The notes under the pieces: model-generated
Seen by the model: only the letters and a program-made list of their open reading frames with translations
What the model was told of the DNA's origin: nothing
The model's database searches: none
Shown here: positions 1,226 to 8,072 of the stretch, one piece after another
Numbering within the stretch: the first letter of the stretch is position 1
Layout of the letters: each line of letters begins with the position of its first letter
Origin: Candidatus Heimdallarchaeota archaeon
GTDB taxonomy: Archaea; Asgardarchaeota; Heimdallarchaeia; Heimdallarchaeales; Heimdallarchaeaceae
Assembly: GCA_021399345.1 (NCBI GenBank)
Contig: JAAFKI010000123.1
Location: forward strand, 1 to 34,412
Length of the DNA stretch: 34,412 nucleotides
Direction of reading: 5' to 3'
Translations under genes and position numbers: made by a program

Positions 1226-3013
1226 CTACAATCCCAACTTCTTCAATTTTGTTTCAGTAGGGATTCCGTTATTATTCCATTCTCTAAGTTGATAATATTC
1301 AAGCTTAGCTGCTTCGAACTGCTCTTTGCTTACAACCAGTCCTTTTGCATCTCCTTCAGGCATTATATCCTTGAAAAATCTTTTAGGAAGAGTATCATCA
1401 TTAGCTGTAATTCCTTCACGTACATTGAACATTCTTGTTAAATTCCATATCCTTTCTCCTACTTCCAAATAACTTTCAGGTGTGTAAGAAAATCCTGTAG
1501 CAGAATTCAACATTTCAACCATTTCAGGGACATTAAAGGGTAAGAAATCACAAACTACTAAGGAAAAACAAGCAGCTCTTTCATCTTGAGATTCCTTGAC
1601 AAACTTGGGAACACCTTCAAATGAAAATCTTGGTAAATCACCACTTAATTCTGCACTTGGAGTCCATGTTCTTTGGTGACAAGCACCTCTATCTGAAGTA
1701 GAATAAGCTAATGCCATCCCCCAAGACCCTCTTGGTTCAACACCTGCTAGTTCATTTCCCTTTACTTGAATAGCAAAATCCATTGAATCATGACCAATTT
1801 TCACAGCAGCAGCTTTTGACCCTTGGGCAAATAAATTACCTATTCTTTCTCTATGTGAAATAAGTTTTATCATCTCAAGTACTGCATCATCATTTCCAAA
1901 AGCTAGATTATCAACATCTGATTGTTGTAAATATCCTTTTTCCACACATTCCATTGCAAAACTTATAGTCGCACCTGCTGTAATCGTATCGATTCCTAAA
2001 TCATCACACATTTCACTTGCTTTTGCTACAGCTGCAAGATCATTAATCCCACAATTTGAACCAAGTAATGCTGTAGTTTCATATTCTGGTCCATCTACAT
2101 CTAAACCAGCATATTTGCCTGTTTCAAATTTGTTAGCTTTACCACAAGCAATTAAACACCCATAACAAGCCCTGTTAGCATAAGTATACTTTTCTAACAT
2201 TGTTTCTCCTGAGATAGAATCAGCCTCTTCAAAGACTCCACTCTGATAATTTTTTGTGGGTAAGAATCCCCCTTGGTTGGACATATTTACCCACATCATT
2301 GTTCCAATTCTATTCCTGTTCTTTACTCCATCATCATTTTGAACCTTAGTGCGAAAAGTTCTTGTAAGTTCTCTAAAATTTTTATGAGCAGCATCAATTT
2401 TTTCAGTTCCACTCACTACGACTGCTTTTAGATTTTTTGACCCCATAACAGCTCCTGAACCACCTCTTCCTGCCATATGAGATCTGCCTGTCATTACATT
2501 TGCATAAGAAACTAGTTTTTCTCCAGCTATACCAATTGATGCCACTTCAGATTTTGGATGTTTTCCTTGAAGTATCTCTTCTGTTGCAAAAGTTCCCCTT
2601 CCCCAAACTTCTTTTGCTGAGATGATTGTAGATCCCTCTGAAGTAACTAACAAATAGCATAGATTTGCTGCTTTTCCTCTAACTAGGATGAAATCATAAC
2701 CAGCTTTTTTCAAACGATGACCAAAGTTTCCACCGATTTGGCTATCAAGATAAATTCCAGTATGGGGAGATTTAGTGACTATACACCATCGACCAGAAGT
2801 TACAACAGAAGTACCTGTTAATGGTCCTGTCATAAAGAGAATGATATTTTCTGGACTTAAAGGATCAACTCCAGCTTCTAATTCATCGTAGAGAATTTTT
2901 GCTCCTAATCCTTTACCTCCAATGAATTTTTCTGCTAATTCCTTATCTAATTTCTTCTCTTGAATTCTTTCAGATGTTAGATCGACATCAAGATACTTGT
3001 GCATATAGCCCAT
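1226..3013 (-). CDS. aor: Tungsten-containing aldehyde:ferredoxin oxidoreductase (AOR family)
   Basis: IGGKGLG, KSPHTG, AGRGGSGAVMGSKNLKA, CxxCxxxC (CYGCLIAC), GPEYET, DDLGID, RGACH and C-terminal GIPTETKLKKLGL. Track start 3022 (TTG); ATG 3013 (MGYMHKYLDVDL) is more likely. Confidence 0.95.
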   Translation of the reverse strand: MGYMHKYLDVDLTSERIQEKKLDKELAEKFIGGKGLGAKILYDELEAGVDPLSPENIILFMTGPLTGTSVVTSGRWCIVTKSPHTGIYLDSQIGGNFGHRLKKAGYDFILVRGKAANLCYLLVTSEGSTIISAKEVWGRGTFATEEILQGKHPKSEVASIGIAGEKLVSYANVMTGRSHMAGRGGSGAVMGSKNLKAVVVSGTEKIDAAHKNFRELTRTFRTKVQNDDGVKNRNRIGTMMWVNMSNQGGFLPTKNYQSGVFEEADSISGETMLEKYTYANRACYGCLIACGKANKFETGKYAGLDVDGPEYETTALLGSNCGINDLAAVAKASEMCDDLGIDTITAGATISFAMECVEKGYLQQSDVDNLAFGNDDAVLEMIKLISHRERIGNLFAQGSKAAAVKIGHDSMDFAIQVKGNELAGVEPRGSWGMALAYSTSDRGACHQRTWTPSAELSGDLPRFSFEGVPKFVKESQDERAACFSLVVCDFLPFNVPEMVEMLNSATGFSYTPESYLEVGERIWNLTRMFNVREGITANDDTLPKRFFKDIMPEGDAKGLVVSKEQFEAAKLEYYQLREWNNNGIPTETKLKKLGL

Positions 3014-3018
3014 TAAAA

Positions 3019-4062
3019 TCAACCCTTAGAAAGTAGTCGATTAATATCAAGAATATCAGTGAGTAAAGCAAAACCTGTTGGAGTTTTTCCTGCACCAGGT
3101 CCCACAATAGTCACGTCATCAACATACTTGGTCGAATAAGTCAAAGCATTAGTTGGCCCCATTATATTGGCTAATGGATGAGTTAAGGGGATTTTTTCAG
3201 GTCTAACATATGCTTCAACAGAACCATCACTCTTAATCTCTGCACCAGCAATCAGTTTCCATCTATATCCTTCTTCCTTAGCCTTAACTATGTCTTCAGC
3301 TGTTATTTTTGTTATGCCTTCACATGGTGGTTCATCTTTGCTCAAATTAGCTCCCATGACAGTATTTGCTAAAATAACGATTTTTCCTAATGCATCATAA
3401 CCTTCAACATCAGCTGTAGGATCTGCTTCTGCATATCCCAGTTCTTGAGCTTGTTCTAGCGCATTCTCATAACTAAGTCCTTTCTCCATCTCTGTTAGAA
3501 TGTAGTTAGTAGTACCATTTACTATGCCCATCGCCTTAGTTATTCCTGCCCCAGCTAGATTGTATAATCCAAGATTCAATGCTGGAGTTCCACTCAACAC
3601 AGTCCCTTCATATCTCATTTCAACACCATTCTCTTTAGCTAAATCTAGTAGCTCTCTGACAGCTAAAGCAATAGGTCCTTTATTTGTTAAAACTACATGT
3701 TTCTTATTTTTCAGAGCAGTTTTGACATGAGTAATTGCCGGTTCTCCAGTCTTGAGATCAGTCCAAGCAACTTCTAGAATAAGATTAGCGTTGGTTTCCT
3801 CAATTGTCTTAATCGAATCCCAACCTTCAATACCATCTCCATAACCCTTTAAATTGCCGTTTTCATTTACTAAATCGAGTAATTTTCGCAAATCTAAACC
3901 AGTTCGTTTATACCAAGACCCTTTCATCGTATCTGATATTGCAACCACTTTGAAGTGGAAATCATAATTCTTCTTGAGATACTCTTCTTGTTCGAGCAAA
4001 ATTTCTGCTAAACCTTGACCAACAACTCCAAATCCAATAAAAGCTATATTAAATTCCATCAT
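3019..4062 (-). CDS. hom: Homoserine dehydrogenase, short form without ACT domain
   Basis: GFGVVG Rossmann motif, HVVLTNKGP, YEGTV, GIVNGTTNYIL, AQELGYAEADPTADVEGYD, GPGAG; ends without a regulatory ACT domain. Confidence 0.95.
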   Translation of the reverse strand: MMEFNIAFIGFGVVGQGLAEILLEQEEYLKKNYDFHFKVVAISDTMKGSWYKRTGLDLRKLLDLVNENGNLKGYGDGIEGWDSIKTIEETNANLILEVAWTDLKTGEPAITHVKTALKNKKHVVLTNKGPIALAVRELLDLAKENGVEMRYEGTVLSGTPALNLGLYNLAGAGITKAMGIVNGTTNYILTEMEKGLSYENALEQAQELGYAEADPTADVEGYDALGKIVILANTVMGANLSKDEPPCEGITKITAEDIVKAKEEGYRWKLIAGAEIKSDGSVEAYVRPEKIPLTHPLANIMGPTNALTYSTKYVDDVTIVGPGAGKTPTGFALLTDILDINRLLSKG

Positions 4063-4185
4063 AAGCCCTCAATAATCTTTCACGCATACTTTAAAGTGGA
4101 ATTGCTTATAAATTTGCTGTCAAGGAGTCTCTTTGTTAGTACAAAAGGTATAAAAGAACAATCAACTAAATAGGAATTGAAATCT

Positions 4186-4773
4186 ATGTCACGATTCTTC
4201 GGTTCAAAAAAACCACCCAAGAGAAACATAACGTCAGCTGAGCAGTATTATAAAGAGAAATATGGAGAAGAAAAAGATGATTCTCCAAGTGATCGAGATA
4301 CAGCAATAATGCAAAAGCTAATTGAAATTGGTGCGTATAATATTAAGAAATCCTCAGGATACTTGACAAAATACTCATTTGATTTACCTATTGAACACGA
4401 AGATGATGTAACTCAAAGAATTACATTAGTAGAAGAAAGCGACAAAGATGTTCATATAGATGCTGAATTAATCCATGAGTTCCCACTGTTTCTGCATGTT
4501 ACAGTTAAGGAAGATTCAAGAAACAGAGAATTTGAGTCATTTACTGGAATGAGTGTCATCAACTTTGTAAACATAAGAACTAACAATGATAAACTTGCAA
4601 CAAAAATTTTAGATGATTCATATGTTAGTGAATACTTCTTCCAACTTATGAAGGATGTTGTTCTAATATCTGCAAATAAAAGCACCCTATCTGCAAAGTT
4701 AACCTCTATTGACAAATTAAAGTACTTCTTCAAATTAATAGCCAGAATGGTTAATATCGCTGAAAAACGATAA
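4186..4773 (+). CDS. Hypothetical protein
   Basis: Track 4177..4773 (TTG); ATG 4186 lies ~30 nt after TATAAAA (4149-4155). Protein-like composition, no recognisable motif. Confidence 0.7.
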   Translation: MSRFFGSKKPPKRNITSAEQYYKEKYGEEKDDSPSDRDTAIMQKLIEIGAYNIKKSSGYLTKYSFDLPIEHEDDVTQRITLVEESDKDVHIDAELIHEFPLFLHVTVKEDSRNREFESFTGMSVINFVNIRTNNDKLATKILDDSYVSEYFFQLMKDVVLISANKSTLSAKLTSIDKLKYFFKLIARMVNIAEKR

Positions 4774-4790
4774 TTTCGGAAGTCGTAAGA

Positions 4791-5606
4791 TTGATAATAG
4801 ATGGTCATGCTCATGCTTTTGGAGAATTTGCTTATTCAGAGAAACTAATTCCACTTATGGATAATTTAGGAGTCGATAAAGTGGTTCTATGTCCAGGTGG
4901 TACTGATCCAGATTATGAATTCAAAATTCCTAAAATAGCTTATAGAAAATCTTCATATAACCACTATTTTCATATCTTAGGAAACGTATTCTTCTTACGT
5001 CTTTTTCATAAAAAAATGAACAATATAGACAATGAATATGTCTTTTCACTCGTGAAAGATTATCCTGACAGATTGATTCAATATTTCTGGATCAATCCTA
5101 ATGATCCTGAGCTAATTTCTACTTTAGAGCAGAACTTTGAGAAAATGTCTTTTGCTGGAATTAAGCTTCATCAATGCTTGAACAAGTTCTCAAATGAAGA
5201 TGAGGGGATGAAAATTATTCCCCAATTCGCAGTTGAAAAGAGCACACCAATTTTTATCCATCTTTATAACTTCAAAGAAGCAAGAAAATTTGTAAAATTA
5301 GCTTATGAATTTCCAAAAGCAAATTATATCATAGCTCATTCTATGGGATTAGAAACTATTGCCAGGAAAGGAGAGAGTCTGAAAAACGTCTATTTTGATA
5401 TTTCAACATATTTCATCATTTCTGAGAAGAGAATACGTTTTGCTATGGACAAGTTTGGGGAAGATAAAGTTTTACTTGGTTCAGATTCACCACTAGGAGA
5501 TAGGAATCTTGAACTAAACATAGAAAAAATTAGAAAAATGGACTTAACAGAAAAACAGAAAAATAAGATTCTTGGAGAGAATATAGCCAAATTGCTACAT
5601 TTGTAA
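4791..5606 (+). CDS. Amidohydrolase family protein (Amidohydro_2, TIM-barrel metallohydrolase)
   Basis: MIIDGHAH (HxH), GIKLH, IFIH, IAHSMG, LGSD metal-binding pattern; TTG start. Confidence 0.9.
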   Translation: MIIDGHAHAFGEFAYSEKLIPLMDNLGVDKVVLCPGGTDPDYEFKIPKIAYRKSSYNHYFHILGNVFFLRLFHKKMNNIDNEYVFSLVKDYPDRLIQYFWINPNDPELISTLEQNFEKMSFAGIKLHQCLNKFSNEDEGMKIIPQFAVEKSTPIFIHLYNFKEARKFVKLAYEFPKANYIIAHSMGLETIARKGESLKNVYFDISTYFIISEKRIRFAMDKFGEDKVLLGSDSPLGDRNLELNIEKIRKMDLTEKQKNKILGENIAKLLHL

Positions 5607-5611
5607 CAATC

Positions 5612-6772
5612 TTACTCGAAAGAATCCTTGATTTGTTGAACAGCTTTTTGAATTGTTTCTATGGATGTAGCATAACTAAATCTAAGATACCCTTCTCCAC
5701 CATCTCCAAAAGCTGATCCGGGTAAACAACATACACCAGCTTTATACAAAATATGATCTGCTATCTCTCGAGAATTCATCCCTGTATCTTTGATATTGGG
5801 AAAGACATAGAAAGCACCTTGAGGGTGTAAACATGTGAAGTTTGGTATGCTATTTAGTCCTTCAACTATCGCATTTCTTCTTTCAAGAAAGGCTTTCATC
5901 ATTTCTTTCAAAGGTTCTTGAGTTCCTTTTAGAGCTGCTATACCAGCTTTTTGAACGAACGATGTTGTACAAGATAAAGCATTAATCATTAAAGTACCCA
6001 TTCTTTCTATTACTTCTTCAGGACCTACTACATAGCCTAAACGCCATCCAGTCATAGCATATGATTTTGAGAACCCATCTAGAATTATCGTTCTTTCTTT
6101 TGATTCATCTCGAATTGCAGGTGAATGGAAAGAAGCTTCATATAGCATCTTGGAGTAAATCTCATCTGATAAGAGGAAAATATTGTTTTTTTCTGCTATT
6201 TCTGCAACTTTGTCTATTTCTTCTTTCGTCATTACAGAACCTGTTGGGTTCTGTGGACTATTCAGGATGATTAGCTTTGTTTTATCAGTGATTCTTTCTT
6301 CAATATCATTGGGATTTAAACGAAATTCGTTTTCTTCTTTCAATTGAATTGGGACATCTCCAGCATTAAGATACTTAGCAACGGAGCCATAAGTAGGAAA
6401 ACCTGGATCAGGATATATTACCTCATCACCAGGATTAACTAAACCAAGCATTGAAAAGAAAATTCCTGGCTTAGCACCAGGTAAAATCAAAATTTGTTCT
6501 ATTGAAGGTCTAAATCCTCTAGTTTGCTCAATTTCATCTTGGATTGCTTGCTTTAGTTCCAAAATTCCAGTAGCTGATACATAGCCAGTGAAATTGTTCT
6601 CAATTGATACATAAGCTGCATCCTTGATATTTTGAGGAGTGGGAAAATCGGGTTGTCCTATTTCGAAATGAAGTATTTCTTTTCCTTCTCTTTCCTGAGC
6701 TTGAGCTTTTGCAAGATATTCAAAAGCTCCCTCTCCTTGAATCCGGTACATTCCGTTTACCATTTTCTTCAT
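5612..6772 (-). CDS. PLP-dependent class I/II aminotransferase (aspartate aminotransferase-like)
   Basis: IGQPDF, NSPQNPTG, SDEIY, GFSKSYAMTGWRLG (PLP lysine), GAFYVF, YLRFSYA. Track start GTG 6781; ATG 6772 follows a GAGTGA SD-like motif. Confidence 0.93.
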   Translation of the reverse strand: MKKMVNGMYRIQGEGAFEYLAKAQAQEREGKEILHFEIGQPDFPTPQNIKDAAYVSIENNFTGYVSATGILELKQAIQDEIEQTRGFRPSIEQILILPGAKPGIFFSMLGLVNPGDEVIYPDPGFPTYGSVAKYLNAGDVPIQLKEENEFRLNPNDIEERITDKTKLIILNSPQNPTGSVMTKEEIDKVAEIAEKNNIFLLSDEIYSKMLYEASFHSPAIRDESKERTIILDGFSKSYAMTGWRLGYVVGPEEVIERMGTLMINALSCTTSFVQKAGIAALKGTQEPLKEMMKAFLERRNAIVEGLNSIPNFTCLHPQGAFYVFPNIKDTGMNSREIADHILYKAGVCCLPGSAFGDGGEGYLRFSYATSIETIQKAVQQIKDSFE

Positions 6773-6788
6773 TACTATCACTCAAAGC

Positions 6789-8072
6789 TTATTTATAATG
6801 GAGTTTTCTAGCTGCAATAAAACTCAAACCTTTTTCTGTAAGAGCTTTAGCTGTATTGTTCACAGATGTATGGCGATCCATATGATTTTGTTCAAGATGG
6901 GGCCATAAACTTTGTTCATCAATTTGTTCCTTTGTAAGGAAATAATCTAGTATATCAGAAGGATGTTCTCTTGTTGGGTCAATTTCCACAGGTCCACCTT
7001 CATGTTTAGCACTAATATTCCTGACTTTTGGAGCAATTTCAAGCAATTCTTGAGTTCTATCATATGGTTGTCTTACAATTGATTTCCATGTTTCAATTAT
7101 GTGATGTTCTAGTCTAACAACGTTTTCAAAACCAAAATTGTTTCTAATTTGAGAACTCATTTCAATTGTCCAGTTGTTAACAGCATTTGAAAGATTGAAT
7201 CCAATCAATGGTGAAGTACCATCTTCTCGAGCAAAGAGTTTTGCAGTCATCAATGTCCAAAGAACAGAATAAGGATTGTCATTACCCATGTACACTGAAA
7301 TCTTAAACTCATTATTTACTCCAAGTTTGTAGAGCATATATCCCAAGATAACAGTTCCAGGATTGATATTCAAAACTTGTTTTACACCATAATTAGTATA
7401 GTAATATAGTAGCTCATCTATCCATTTCAATGCAAATTCATTAGGTTGTCCAACACCTCCAAAGTATCCTGTAATTGTATCAGGACCACCTAGATGAATA
7501 TTAACAGGCATACCATCAGGACCAGGAGCTGTTCCTTTTGTATCTAAGGTTTCTACAATAGAAGCCCCTATTATGTCAACAGCTGCCTGCATTGCCAGAA
7601 GATCCCCATCTTTTTCTTGTTCTTTCATATATCTAACACGGATTATTCTGCCTGGCATAAGATCTTGATTAGAAATGGCTTTTTTTGCACCTTTAATTAA
7701 AAATGGAAAGTATTGACATGCAGAAAATTCTAGAGTTACAGCAAACGAATCGTCAAATTTAATTCTGTCAACTGCATTTCCTAAAATCTTTCTTCTGTAG
7801 TTATCAACGCTAATGAATGCATCATTTTCTCTCTGCTTTATTAACCACTCAAGTTCGTCTATATAATCAGGATTAACTGTTTCGAGCTTTTTATAGATGG
7901 TTTCAATTTTTCTTGCTTCTTTGAATTTCTTATTTATTTCATCAACTCCTCCGTATTTATCTACTAACTGTAGAAGGTCATTAACAAAGGGGTTGTTTTC
8001 ATCAATTAAGAATTTTTGAATCTCATCTATGTTCTCTTTAGAAATGCTCAGTTTATTTCTTATATTTTCCAT
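6789..8072 (-). CDS. Hypothetical protein, predicted (beta/alpha)8 barrel enzyme
   Basis: 427-aa ORF with GGAGG SD (8080-8084); glycine-rich enzyme-like motifs (ETLDTKG, HLGGPDTITGYFGGVGQPN, KISVYMGNDNP, EHH, SAKHEGG); only 16 nt from the aminotransferase start. Confidence 0.85.
   Translation of the reverse strand: MENIRNKLSISKENIDEIQKFLIDENNPFVNDLLQLVDKYGGVDEINKKFKEARKIETIYKKLETVNPDYIDELEWLIKQRENDAFISVDNYRRKILGNAVDRIKFDDSFAVTLEFSACQYFPFLIKGAKKAISNQDLMPGRIIRVRYMKEQEKDGDLLAMQAAVDIIGASIVETLDTKGTAPGPDGMPVNIHLGGPDTITGYFGGVGQPNEFALKWIDELLYYYTNYGVKQVLNINPGTVILGYMLYKLGVNNEFKISVYMGNDNPYSVLWTLMTAKLFAREDGTSPLIGFNLSNAVNNWTIEMSSQIRNNFGFENVVRLEHHIIETWKSIVRQPYDRTQELLEIAPKVRNISAKHEGGPVEIDPTREHPSDILDYFLTKEQIDEQSLWPHLEQNHMDRHTSVNNTAKALTEKGLSFIAARKLHYK

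Follow-up and report, generated by a model that had tools for sequence, protein, structure and literature searches.

Aspartate kinase (AK; LysC/Ask) and Asd catalyze steps that are treated as near-universal, and Asd is an antibacterial target since bacteria need its product for cell-wall diaminopimelate. In archaeal glycolysis, the acyl-phosphate pair GAPDH/PGK is bypassed by GAPOR, a member of the aldehyde:ferredoxin oxidoreductase (AOR) family that interconverts aldehyde and acid with ferredoxin and works oxidatively. FOR of Pyrococcus furiosus, another enzyme of this tungsten family, is reported to prefer C4-C6 acid-substituted aldehydes such as succinic semialdehyde, and we know of no link between it and a homoserine dehydrogenase gene (hom). 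Besides homoserine dehydrogenase (Hom) and DapA, aspartate semialdehyde supplies the aromatic and homocysteine pathways of some archaea, according to references given in PMC9012536. A 2026 classification of tungsten oxidoreductases gives a defined physiological role for only 5 of 92 clades and has no mention of homoserine, aspartate, or semialdehyde (PMC13328260). Here, we describe a pair formed by hom and an AOR gene (aor) in positions 1 to 34,412 of contig JAAFKI010000123.1 from “Candidatus Heimdallarchaeota archaeon” (Heimdallarchaeaceae, assembly GCA_021399345.1), the whole stretch of 34,412 nucleotides being referred to as the window. This AOR belongs to a clade whose members we lean toward reading as aspartate-semialdehyde:ferredoxin oxidoreductases, which would reduce aspartate and replace AK and Asd. 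The pair probably marks an ATP-free route into threonine, methionine, and lysine/cell-wall synthesis.

The elements of the pair, all on the minus strand, are as follows.

3019 to 4062, minus strand: hom, homoserine dehydrogenase without an ACT domain, 347 amino acids, assigned by Pfam and by NCBIfam NF004912; the sole Hom of the genome
3014 to 3018, minus strand: spacer of 5 nt (TTTTA) from the hom stop to the aor ATG, by direct sequence reading
1226 to 3013, minus strand: aor, predicted tungsten/molybdopterin AOR, 595 amino acids, assigned by AFOR_N and AFOR_C and placed in the hom-linked clade by the tree
4106 to 4112, minus strand: TTTATAA, candidate archaeal TATA box for hom-aor, by direct sequence reading

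The hom stop codon (TGA, 3021-3019) is followed by the aor ATG (3013-3011), and aor ends in TAG (1228-1226), with a T-rich run 3' of it. The TTTATAA element lies ca. 45 nt 5' of the hom ATG, and a GAGGG sequence is found near this ATG, at 4070-4066. The original prediction had described a hom stop 5 nt from the likely aor ATG on the same strand and a TATA element before hom at about 4107-4113; our reading agrees with the first and places the second at 4112-4106, within one base. From the 5-nt spacer alone, we would predict co-transcription and translational coupling of the two genes, and spacers of 5 to 35 nt separate them in most other lineages too. Two contigs of metatranscriptome X20 were at least 99% identical to the locus, covering only window positions 3282-3556 within hom, while one contig from a public run spans the hom/aor junction, but that run is probably DNA.

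The adjacency was conserved well beyond this genome. Among same-genus genomes with hom, the aor ortholog came directly after it in 21 of 21, with identities of 83 to 99% for Hom and 70 to 97% for AOR, and the adjacency was present in a sister family as well. Farther away, two closed Asgard genomes of Heimdall/Hod type (3.16 and 4.94 Mb) carry the pair, as do MAGs (metagenome-assembled genomes) labeled Hod/Hermod and Thorarchaeota and a metagenome contig that is bacterial by its sigma-70 neighbors. A scan of one genome per species, which is a sample and not a census, gave 80 AOR loci out of at least 599 stretches; among these loci, hom adjoins aor in an Asgard genome (82% AOR identity), a Promethearchaeota MAG, Stahlbacteria, a Thermococci MAG, Thermoplasmatota, Thermoprotei, Thermovirgaceae (Synergistota), and Bacteroidales. 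Both gene orders, hom-aor and aor-hom, occur. Hence, the synteny comparison proposed along with the original prediction shows an arrangement shared across Asgard classes and other phyla, and not unique to this genome.

To classify the AORs, we used a tree of 92 sequences that comprised those of the 80 scan loci, other orthologous loci, and the paralogs of the window's own genome. All 14 hom-linked AORs fell in one clade of 17 members (SH-aLRT, 99), while none of the 75 AORs outside it was hom-linked. The own genome has eight AFOR_N matches, and the six other paralogs in the tree all branched outside the hom-linked clade. Contig C195 of this genome carries two AOR-family genes in tandem. The P. 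furiosus AOR ortholog (L092, 1,039 bits to 1aor) was in the other major clade, and other solved AORs score far better against L092 than against the window AOR, so that the hom-linked clade is left without a solved member; as far as could be found, it has no characterized member either. The idea that hom-linked AORs might form a group of their own thus held, since they make up one clade, apart from the characterized broad-specificity AORs.

We then compared the distribution of the pair with that of the canonical enzymes. The own genome assembly amounts to 3.27 Mb in 199 contigs (33.5% GC, 88.6% completeness), and neither Asd (PF02774) nor AK (TIGR00657) was found in it with profiles that matched in all 14 control genomes; a tblastn search of this genome with two Asd and two AK queries from relatives gave no match either. 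Profile searches of 28 relatives in families f1, f2, and f4 did not find Asd or AK. In contrast, both are present in the sister family f3, often with AK-Hom fusions, and therefore two solutions to one pathway step alternate between families of an order. These f3 fusions have 829 to 868 amino acids and occur in genomes that also have Asd (G036:C257, G028:C212, G030:C2, and G038:C488). Searches for AK and Asd gave no match in either closed Asgard genome or in the Thor MAG with the pair, although all three keep threonine synthase. Sampling of 250 Asgard genomes placed the AOR ortholog in two Heimdallarchaeaceae genera, in 12 of 17 genomes of one genus of the same class but another family, and in one genome outside the class. 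PF02774 was matched in 1 of the 31 Asgard genomes with the AOR ortholog versus 50 of 54 genomes of the largest other Asgard family. Neither AK nor Asd was found in the Thermoplasmatota, Thermoprotei, Synergistota, and Bacteroidales carriers examined among the scan loci. Overall, canonical AK plus Asd and the hom-linked AOR were largely mutually exclusive in the genomes searched. The original prediction had noted that AK, asd, and thrC are not adjacent to the pair and had proposed checking for lysC and asd in pair-carrying genomes; AK and Asd were missing from the searches of the whole own genome and of most carriers, the two closed Asgard genomes included, and the true thrC of the own genome is on another contig.

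The Bacteroidales provided a replicate of this pattern. Within 151 genomes, the AOR ortholog was present in 13, for which 13 non-carriers served as controls, and hom directly adjoins aor in all 12 testable carriers. Asd was found in 13 of 13 controls versus 5 of 13 carriers and AK in 13 of 13 versus 4 of 13, and the eight carriers without Asd were all without AK too. Fisher's exact test for Asd gave a P value of 0.0016, a significance that is overstated, as relatives are not independent and genome completeness is not reported. A MetY-like gene (O-acetylhomoserine sulfhydrylase family) precedes hom in six of these genomes, and DapA follows aor in three. In the metY-hom-aor-dapA arrangement, aor stands between consumers of aspartate semialdehyde, in genomes without another known source of it, so AOR would occupy the place expected for asd.

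Hom has the features of the homoserine dehydrogenase family. It matched PF03447 (NAD_binding_3) and PF00742 (Homoserine_dh) and scored 424 bits against the NCBIfam equivalog NF004912 (cut-off, 373). The C-terminal ACT regulatory domain, which many bacterial Homs have but which does not define the family, was reported as missing by the original prediction and was not matched by our Pfam search of the protein; 3do5, its nearest solved structure, and archaeal Homs generally are likewise without it. Lys128, Asp223, and Lys227, the catalytic residues, are invariant in an alignment of 12 AOR-linked Homs and are presumably the equivalents of yeast K117, D219, and K223. PF00742 had a single match in the own genome, which indicates one Hom only, and Hom is single copy and AOR linked in 10 of 12 carriers.

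The AOR, in turn, combines a conserved core with a distinct active-site surrounding. It matched PF02730 (AFOR_N; 2e-73) and PF01314 (AFOR_C; 3.8e-135), both over their full length, and gave only 54 bits against the NCBIfam GAPOR model (cut-off, 1,300). The Cys ligands of the 4Fe-4S cluster (C288, C291, C295, and C494 in P. furiosus AOR) are kept, the CxxCxxxC motif and Cys488 being aligned and invariant. Glu312 and His446 are present in 17 of 17 clade members and Thr238 in 16 of 17; these correspond to P. furiosus Glu313, His448, and Thr243, which are second-shell catalytic residues in AORs (PMC12096430). The equivalent of P. furiosus Tyr312 is also kept in the clade. Tyr427 has been described as universally conserved among known AORs (PMC12096430), while its position is occupied by Val425 in the window AOR and, within the clade, by Val in 12 and Tyr in 5 of 17 members. 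This loss argues for a remodeled substrate site, as it would seem from the alignment, and not against membership in the AOR family. The position of P. furiosus Tyr452 is Trp in all 17 members, and that of P. furiosus Asp489, which contacts the pterin, is Phe or Tyr in 15. The bridging-Fe ligands Glu332 and His383 of Pyrococcus-type AOR (PMC12096430) are not kept either, the aligned residues being Lys331 and Leu379.

A clade signature could be defined by R233, D441, Q447, W450, E478, R479, D489, and P492 (window AOR numbering). Of these, R233, D441, Q447, E478, R479, D489, and P492 are invariant or near-invariant within the clade, while outside it the same seven positions are mostly Leu, Asn, Val/Leu, Leu, Thr, Leu/Lys, and Ser/Thr, respectively. 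The charged or polar R233, D441, Q447, E478, R479, and D489, which stand where other AORs have hydrophobic or neutral residues, each lie no more than 10 residues from Thr238, His446, or Cys488. We infer that the clade-specific charged residues may shape a pocket for a zwitterionic substrate and bind its alpha-amino-acid end.

On this basis, hom and aor would be a two-gene operon whose products form a coupled redox pair for acid, aldehyde, and alcohol, with the side chain of aspartate as the target. The AOR would convert aspartate and reduced ferredoxin into aspartate semialdehyde, working reductively in this organism and in most carriers, and Hom with NAD(P)H would pull the semialdehyde to homoserine, as would DapA where present. 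The AOR step would thereby replace AK and Asd without ATP or an acyl-phosphate. The original prediction had proposed a ferredoxin-linked Hom/AOR route running in either of two directions; such a route is supported by the gene content, which would favor the reductive bypass of LysC/Asd over oxidation. The reductive direction is favored because the consumers Hom, ThrC, and DapA (and DHQS-II in G041) are kept while the producers AK and Asd are missing, and also because Hom is the sole copy and the bacterial operon context is biosynthetic. Regarding these consumers, the true ThrC of the own genome (G000:C192:31828-33051) scored 570 bits against NF006050 (cut-off, 303), and DapA is present in the Thermoprotei carrier. 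DHQS-II, which is part of a semialdehyde-using aromatic route, was found (PF01959) only in the closed genome G041 and not in the window's own genus, and for this reason the DHQS-II argument does not apply to the window. Acid reduction by AORs has been demonstrated (PMC12096430), and in vivo conversion of organic acids to alcohols by an AOR working with an NAD(P)H dehydrogenase is on record (PMC10816221, PMC8466923). We see about an even chance that the clade acts as the physiological aspartate reductase replacing AK/Asd in Heimdall- and Hod-type Asgard archaea, some Thorarchaeia, Thermoplasmatota, Thermoprotei, Synergistota, and some Bacteroidales.

A second ThrC-like enzyme of the PALP family was detected in the own genome (G000:C19:39956-48358, L160), just above the cut-off of TIGR00260 but with only 197 bits against NF006050. 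It clusters with a xanthine-dehydrogenase-type Mo enzyme, a dihydroorotate/dihydropyrimidine-dehydrogenase-like Fe-S protein, and an amidohydrolase, and this cluster looks like nucleobase catabolism rather than threonine synthesis.

Several observations weigh against the reduction of aspartate by this AOR, or limit its extent. AK and/or Asd is retained in seven carriers, namely the Stahlbacteria and Thermococci MAGs and 5 of 13 Bacteroidales, and thus the AOR is not always a replacement; in the Stahlbacteria and Thermococci carriers there are an adjacent Asd gene and an aspartate-kinase-like gene, the Thermococci kinase match being below the family cut-off. Many Asgard families have neither Asd nor this AOR, so that a lack of Asd is not by itself predictive of the module and the relation is one-directional. 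Most of the genomes are MAGs, the own one being incomplete as given above, and no completeness value is given for those reached via loci. Between homoserine and ThrC, a step is unaccounted for in the own genome, because the homoserine kinase models TIGR00191 (GHMP) and TIGR02535 (proposed PGM-like) gave only sub-threshold matches, in a search limited to these two kinase types. No PF02774 protein, hence no ArgC or LysY, was found in this genome, nor was DapA; auxotrophy for several amino acids, including arginine and lysine, is probable, which weakens the case for an obligatory threonine synthesis of its own. Ferredoxin-driven acid reduction is also uphill, with the acid/aldehyde couple near -580 mV, and needs a low-potential ferredoxin and product pull. 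Finally, three clade members are not hom-linked. One of them, in a Clostridia MAG (L080:1947-7485), has a sigma-54 activator on one side and a gene resembling GABA aminotransferase (TIGR00700, 487 bits; cut-off, 507) on the other, which suggests a succinic-semialdehyde-oxidizing relative inside the clade. Because this hom-less member adjoins such a gene, the specificity of the clade may be broader, extending to C4 semialdehydes in general.

The pair also belongs to a longer gene neighborhood, represented in the window by the following features.

4177 to 5606, plus strand: two genes, for a 198-amino-acid protein without assignment and an Amidohydro_2 protein, which, in this genus, separate the two features below from hom-aor
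5612 to 6781, minus strand: class I (AspAT-like) aminotransferase, matching Aminotran_1_2, ancestral neighbor of hom-aor
6789 to 8072, minus strand: 427-amino-acid protein with no family match, U32-like TIM barrel plus N-terminal helical domain, ancestral neighbor

In other Asgard archaea and Thermoplasmatota, a longer operon contains the 427-amino-acid protein, the AspAT-like aminotransferase, hom, aor, and often a PatB/MalY-type C-S lyase (TIGR04350, above cut-off), an ortholog of which was not found in the own genome. The best NCBIfam matches of the window aminotransferase were aspartate aminotransferases, all below cut-off. The aminotransferase gene is directly 5' of hom at loci L064, L070, and L072, and its ortholog flanks aor at L077; the plus-strand gene pair of the window is absent between the aminotransferase gene and hom at L064 and L070. 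At all four loci the gene for the 427-amino-acid protein is located 5' of aminotransferase-hom-aor (L064:1460-2743, L070:1421-2704, and L077:1654-2925 for three of them). This protein has more than 8,000 homologs, with identities of at least 69% across Asgard classes, and no Pfam or NCBIfam match. In its AF2 model (pLDDT, 91), a helical domain at the N terminus is combined with a TIM barrel, with conserved His, Asp, and Arg. The best fold matches were Peptidase-U32-type barrels of the ESM atlas (TM, 0.74/0.56). Matches in the PDB were discarded as generic TIM barrels only, with class II aldolases at an E value of ca. 3e-4 and TM of 0.3 to 0.4 and VIA Z scores of ca. 12 to many unrelated barrels. 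In a Thor MAG (G043:C53), a homolog, 52% identical over the covered part (L068:3-485, minus strand), lies divergently beside thrC and is a second link of this family to homoserine/threonine metabolism. Another Thor MAG locus (L065:6902-8892) has an Etf alpha/beta pair with a ferredoxin-domain fusion (FixAB-like), convergent to hom-aor and not seen in other lineages, which could be an electron-transfer partner or a coincidence. Class III diaminobutyrate-aminotransferase-like genes were found near the pair in Thermoprotei.

Among the alternatives, the same two enzymes could work catabolically, with Hom oxidizing homoserine and the AOR oxidizing the semialdehyde to aspartate, yielding NAD(P)H and reduced ferredoxin, and the aminotransferase feeding oxaloacetate to central metabolism. 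Aldehyde oxidation is the favored and usually assayed direction of AORs (PMC12096430), and the own genome, with its eight AOR paralogs and without ArgC/LysY or DapA, looks like that of an auxotrophic peptide fermenter. The position of the Clostridia clade AOR behind a sigma-54 activator and by a GABA-aminotransferase-like gene is a typical catabolic layout, the class III aminotransferase-like genes of Thermoprotei point the same way, and the carriers retaining AK/Asd would fit a non-redundant catabolic role. However, an abundant source of homoserine is not evident, and the AOR-linked Hom is the only one in genomes that keep ThrC. The Bacteroidales pair lies between the MetY-like enzyme and DapA, a strictly biosynthetic consumer of the semialdehyde, and the strong association with the loss of AK and Asd would be left unexplained. 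We consider the catabolic direction unlikely.

It is similarly improbable that the AOR acts on another aldehyde, such as succinic semialdehyde or one derived from a 2-oxo acid, or takes part in 4-hydroxy-2-oxobutanoate chemistry with the barrel enzyme, Hom being co-regulated or non-canonical. Pyrococcus-type AORs oxidize aldehydes from transaminated amino acids, and aminotransferases flank the pair in many lineages; the barrel protein travels with the cluster, and one clade AOR is paired with a GABA-aminotransferase-like gene and no hom. Nevertheless, Hom passes its equivalog model and keeps the catalytic residues, the recurrent partner is Hom (14 of 17 clade members and every testable Bacteroidales carrier) and not the aminotransferase or the barrel protein, and the loss of AK/Asd points specifically to aspartate semialdehyde. 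Lastly, a functionally meaningless adjacency, conceivable in a genome with so many AOR paralogs that some AOR will adjoin any given gene, is extremely improbable and was rejected given the conservation of the pair across domains and lineages in both gene orders, its recurrence in Bacteroidales, and the confinement of hom linkage to a single AOR clade (14 of 17 inside versus 0 of 75 outside).

Reductive formation of aspartate semialdehyde by the hom-linked AOR, the reading we prefer, can be compared with several known systems. The closest solved structure is P. furiosus AOR (1aor), the best PDB match of the window AOR with 445 bits, which shares the two-domain architecture, the Cys ligands, and the equivalents of Glu313, His448, Thr243, and Tyr312; other solved AORs sensu stricto (9mqx, 9g7j, and 8c0z) have the same architecture and cluster Cys residues. 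However, P. furiosus AOR belongs to another clade and is not hom-linked, the window AOR being ca. 42% identical to the P. furiosus AOR ortholog and differing from P. furiosus AOR by five charged substitutions around the active-site motifs. P. furiosus FOR (1b25) is a more distant match (337 bits). AOR with alcohol dehydrogenase carries out ferredoxin-driven conversion of acids to alcohols in Thermoanaerobacter X514, engineered P. furiosus, and acetogens (PMC10816221, PMC8466923), and Hom would act as the dehydrogenase here. Those systems have broad specificity, use fatty and aromatic acids, and are an electron sink, whereas the locus described here has a dedicated clade, an amino-acid dehydrogenase, and a proposed role in biosynthesis.

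Our literature search, which covered sources other than subscription journals, found no paper in which an AOR is connected with homoserine dehydrogenase or aspartate semialdehyde. Both enzyme families are known, but their conserved pairing implies a substrate specificity that would be new, as would the point of entry into the aspartate-family pathway. If true, threonine, methionine, and bacterial diaminopimelate/peptidoglycan synthesis would depend on ferredoxin and W/Mo instead of ATP in these organisms. Such a route would fill a gap in the reconstructions of Asgard archaea and other anaerobes that now look auxotrophic, and one of many uncharacterized AOR/WOR clades would gain a physiological role. 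It would also be an anabolic use of biological carboxylate reduction, tying amino-acid and cell-wall synthesis to the supply of W/Mo.

The proposed net conversion of aspartate to aspartate semialdehyde is the same as that of canonical LysC/Ask and Asd. However, the canonical pair uses ATP, an acyl-phosphate, and NADPH, while the proposed route would use reduced ferredoxin and a W/Mo-pterin enzyme, and no ATP. GAPOR follows the same bypass logic as proposed here for Asd/AK, although it belongs to a different AOR subfamily and acts on a different substrate. If our reading is true, the hom-linked AOR would stand as the biosynthetic equivalent of GAPOR, and it would be the first AOR with an assigned anabolic role, by acid reduction, in core amino-acid metabolism.

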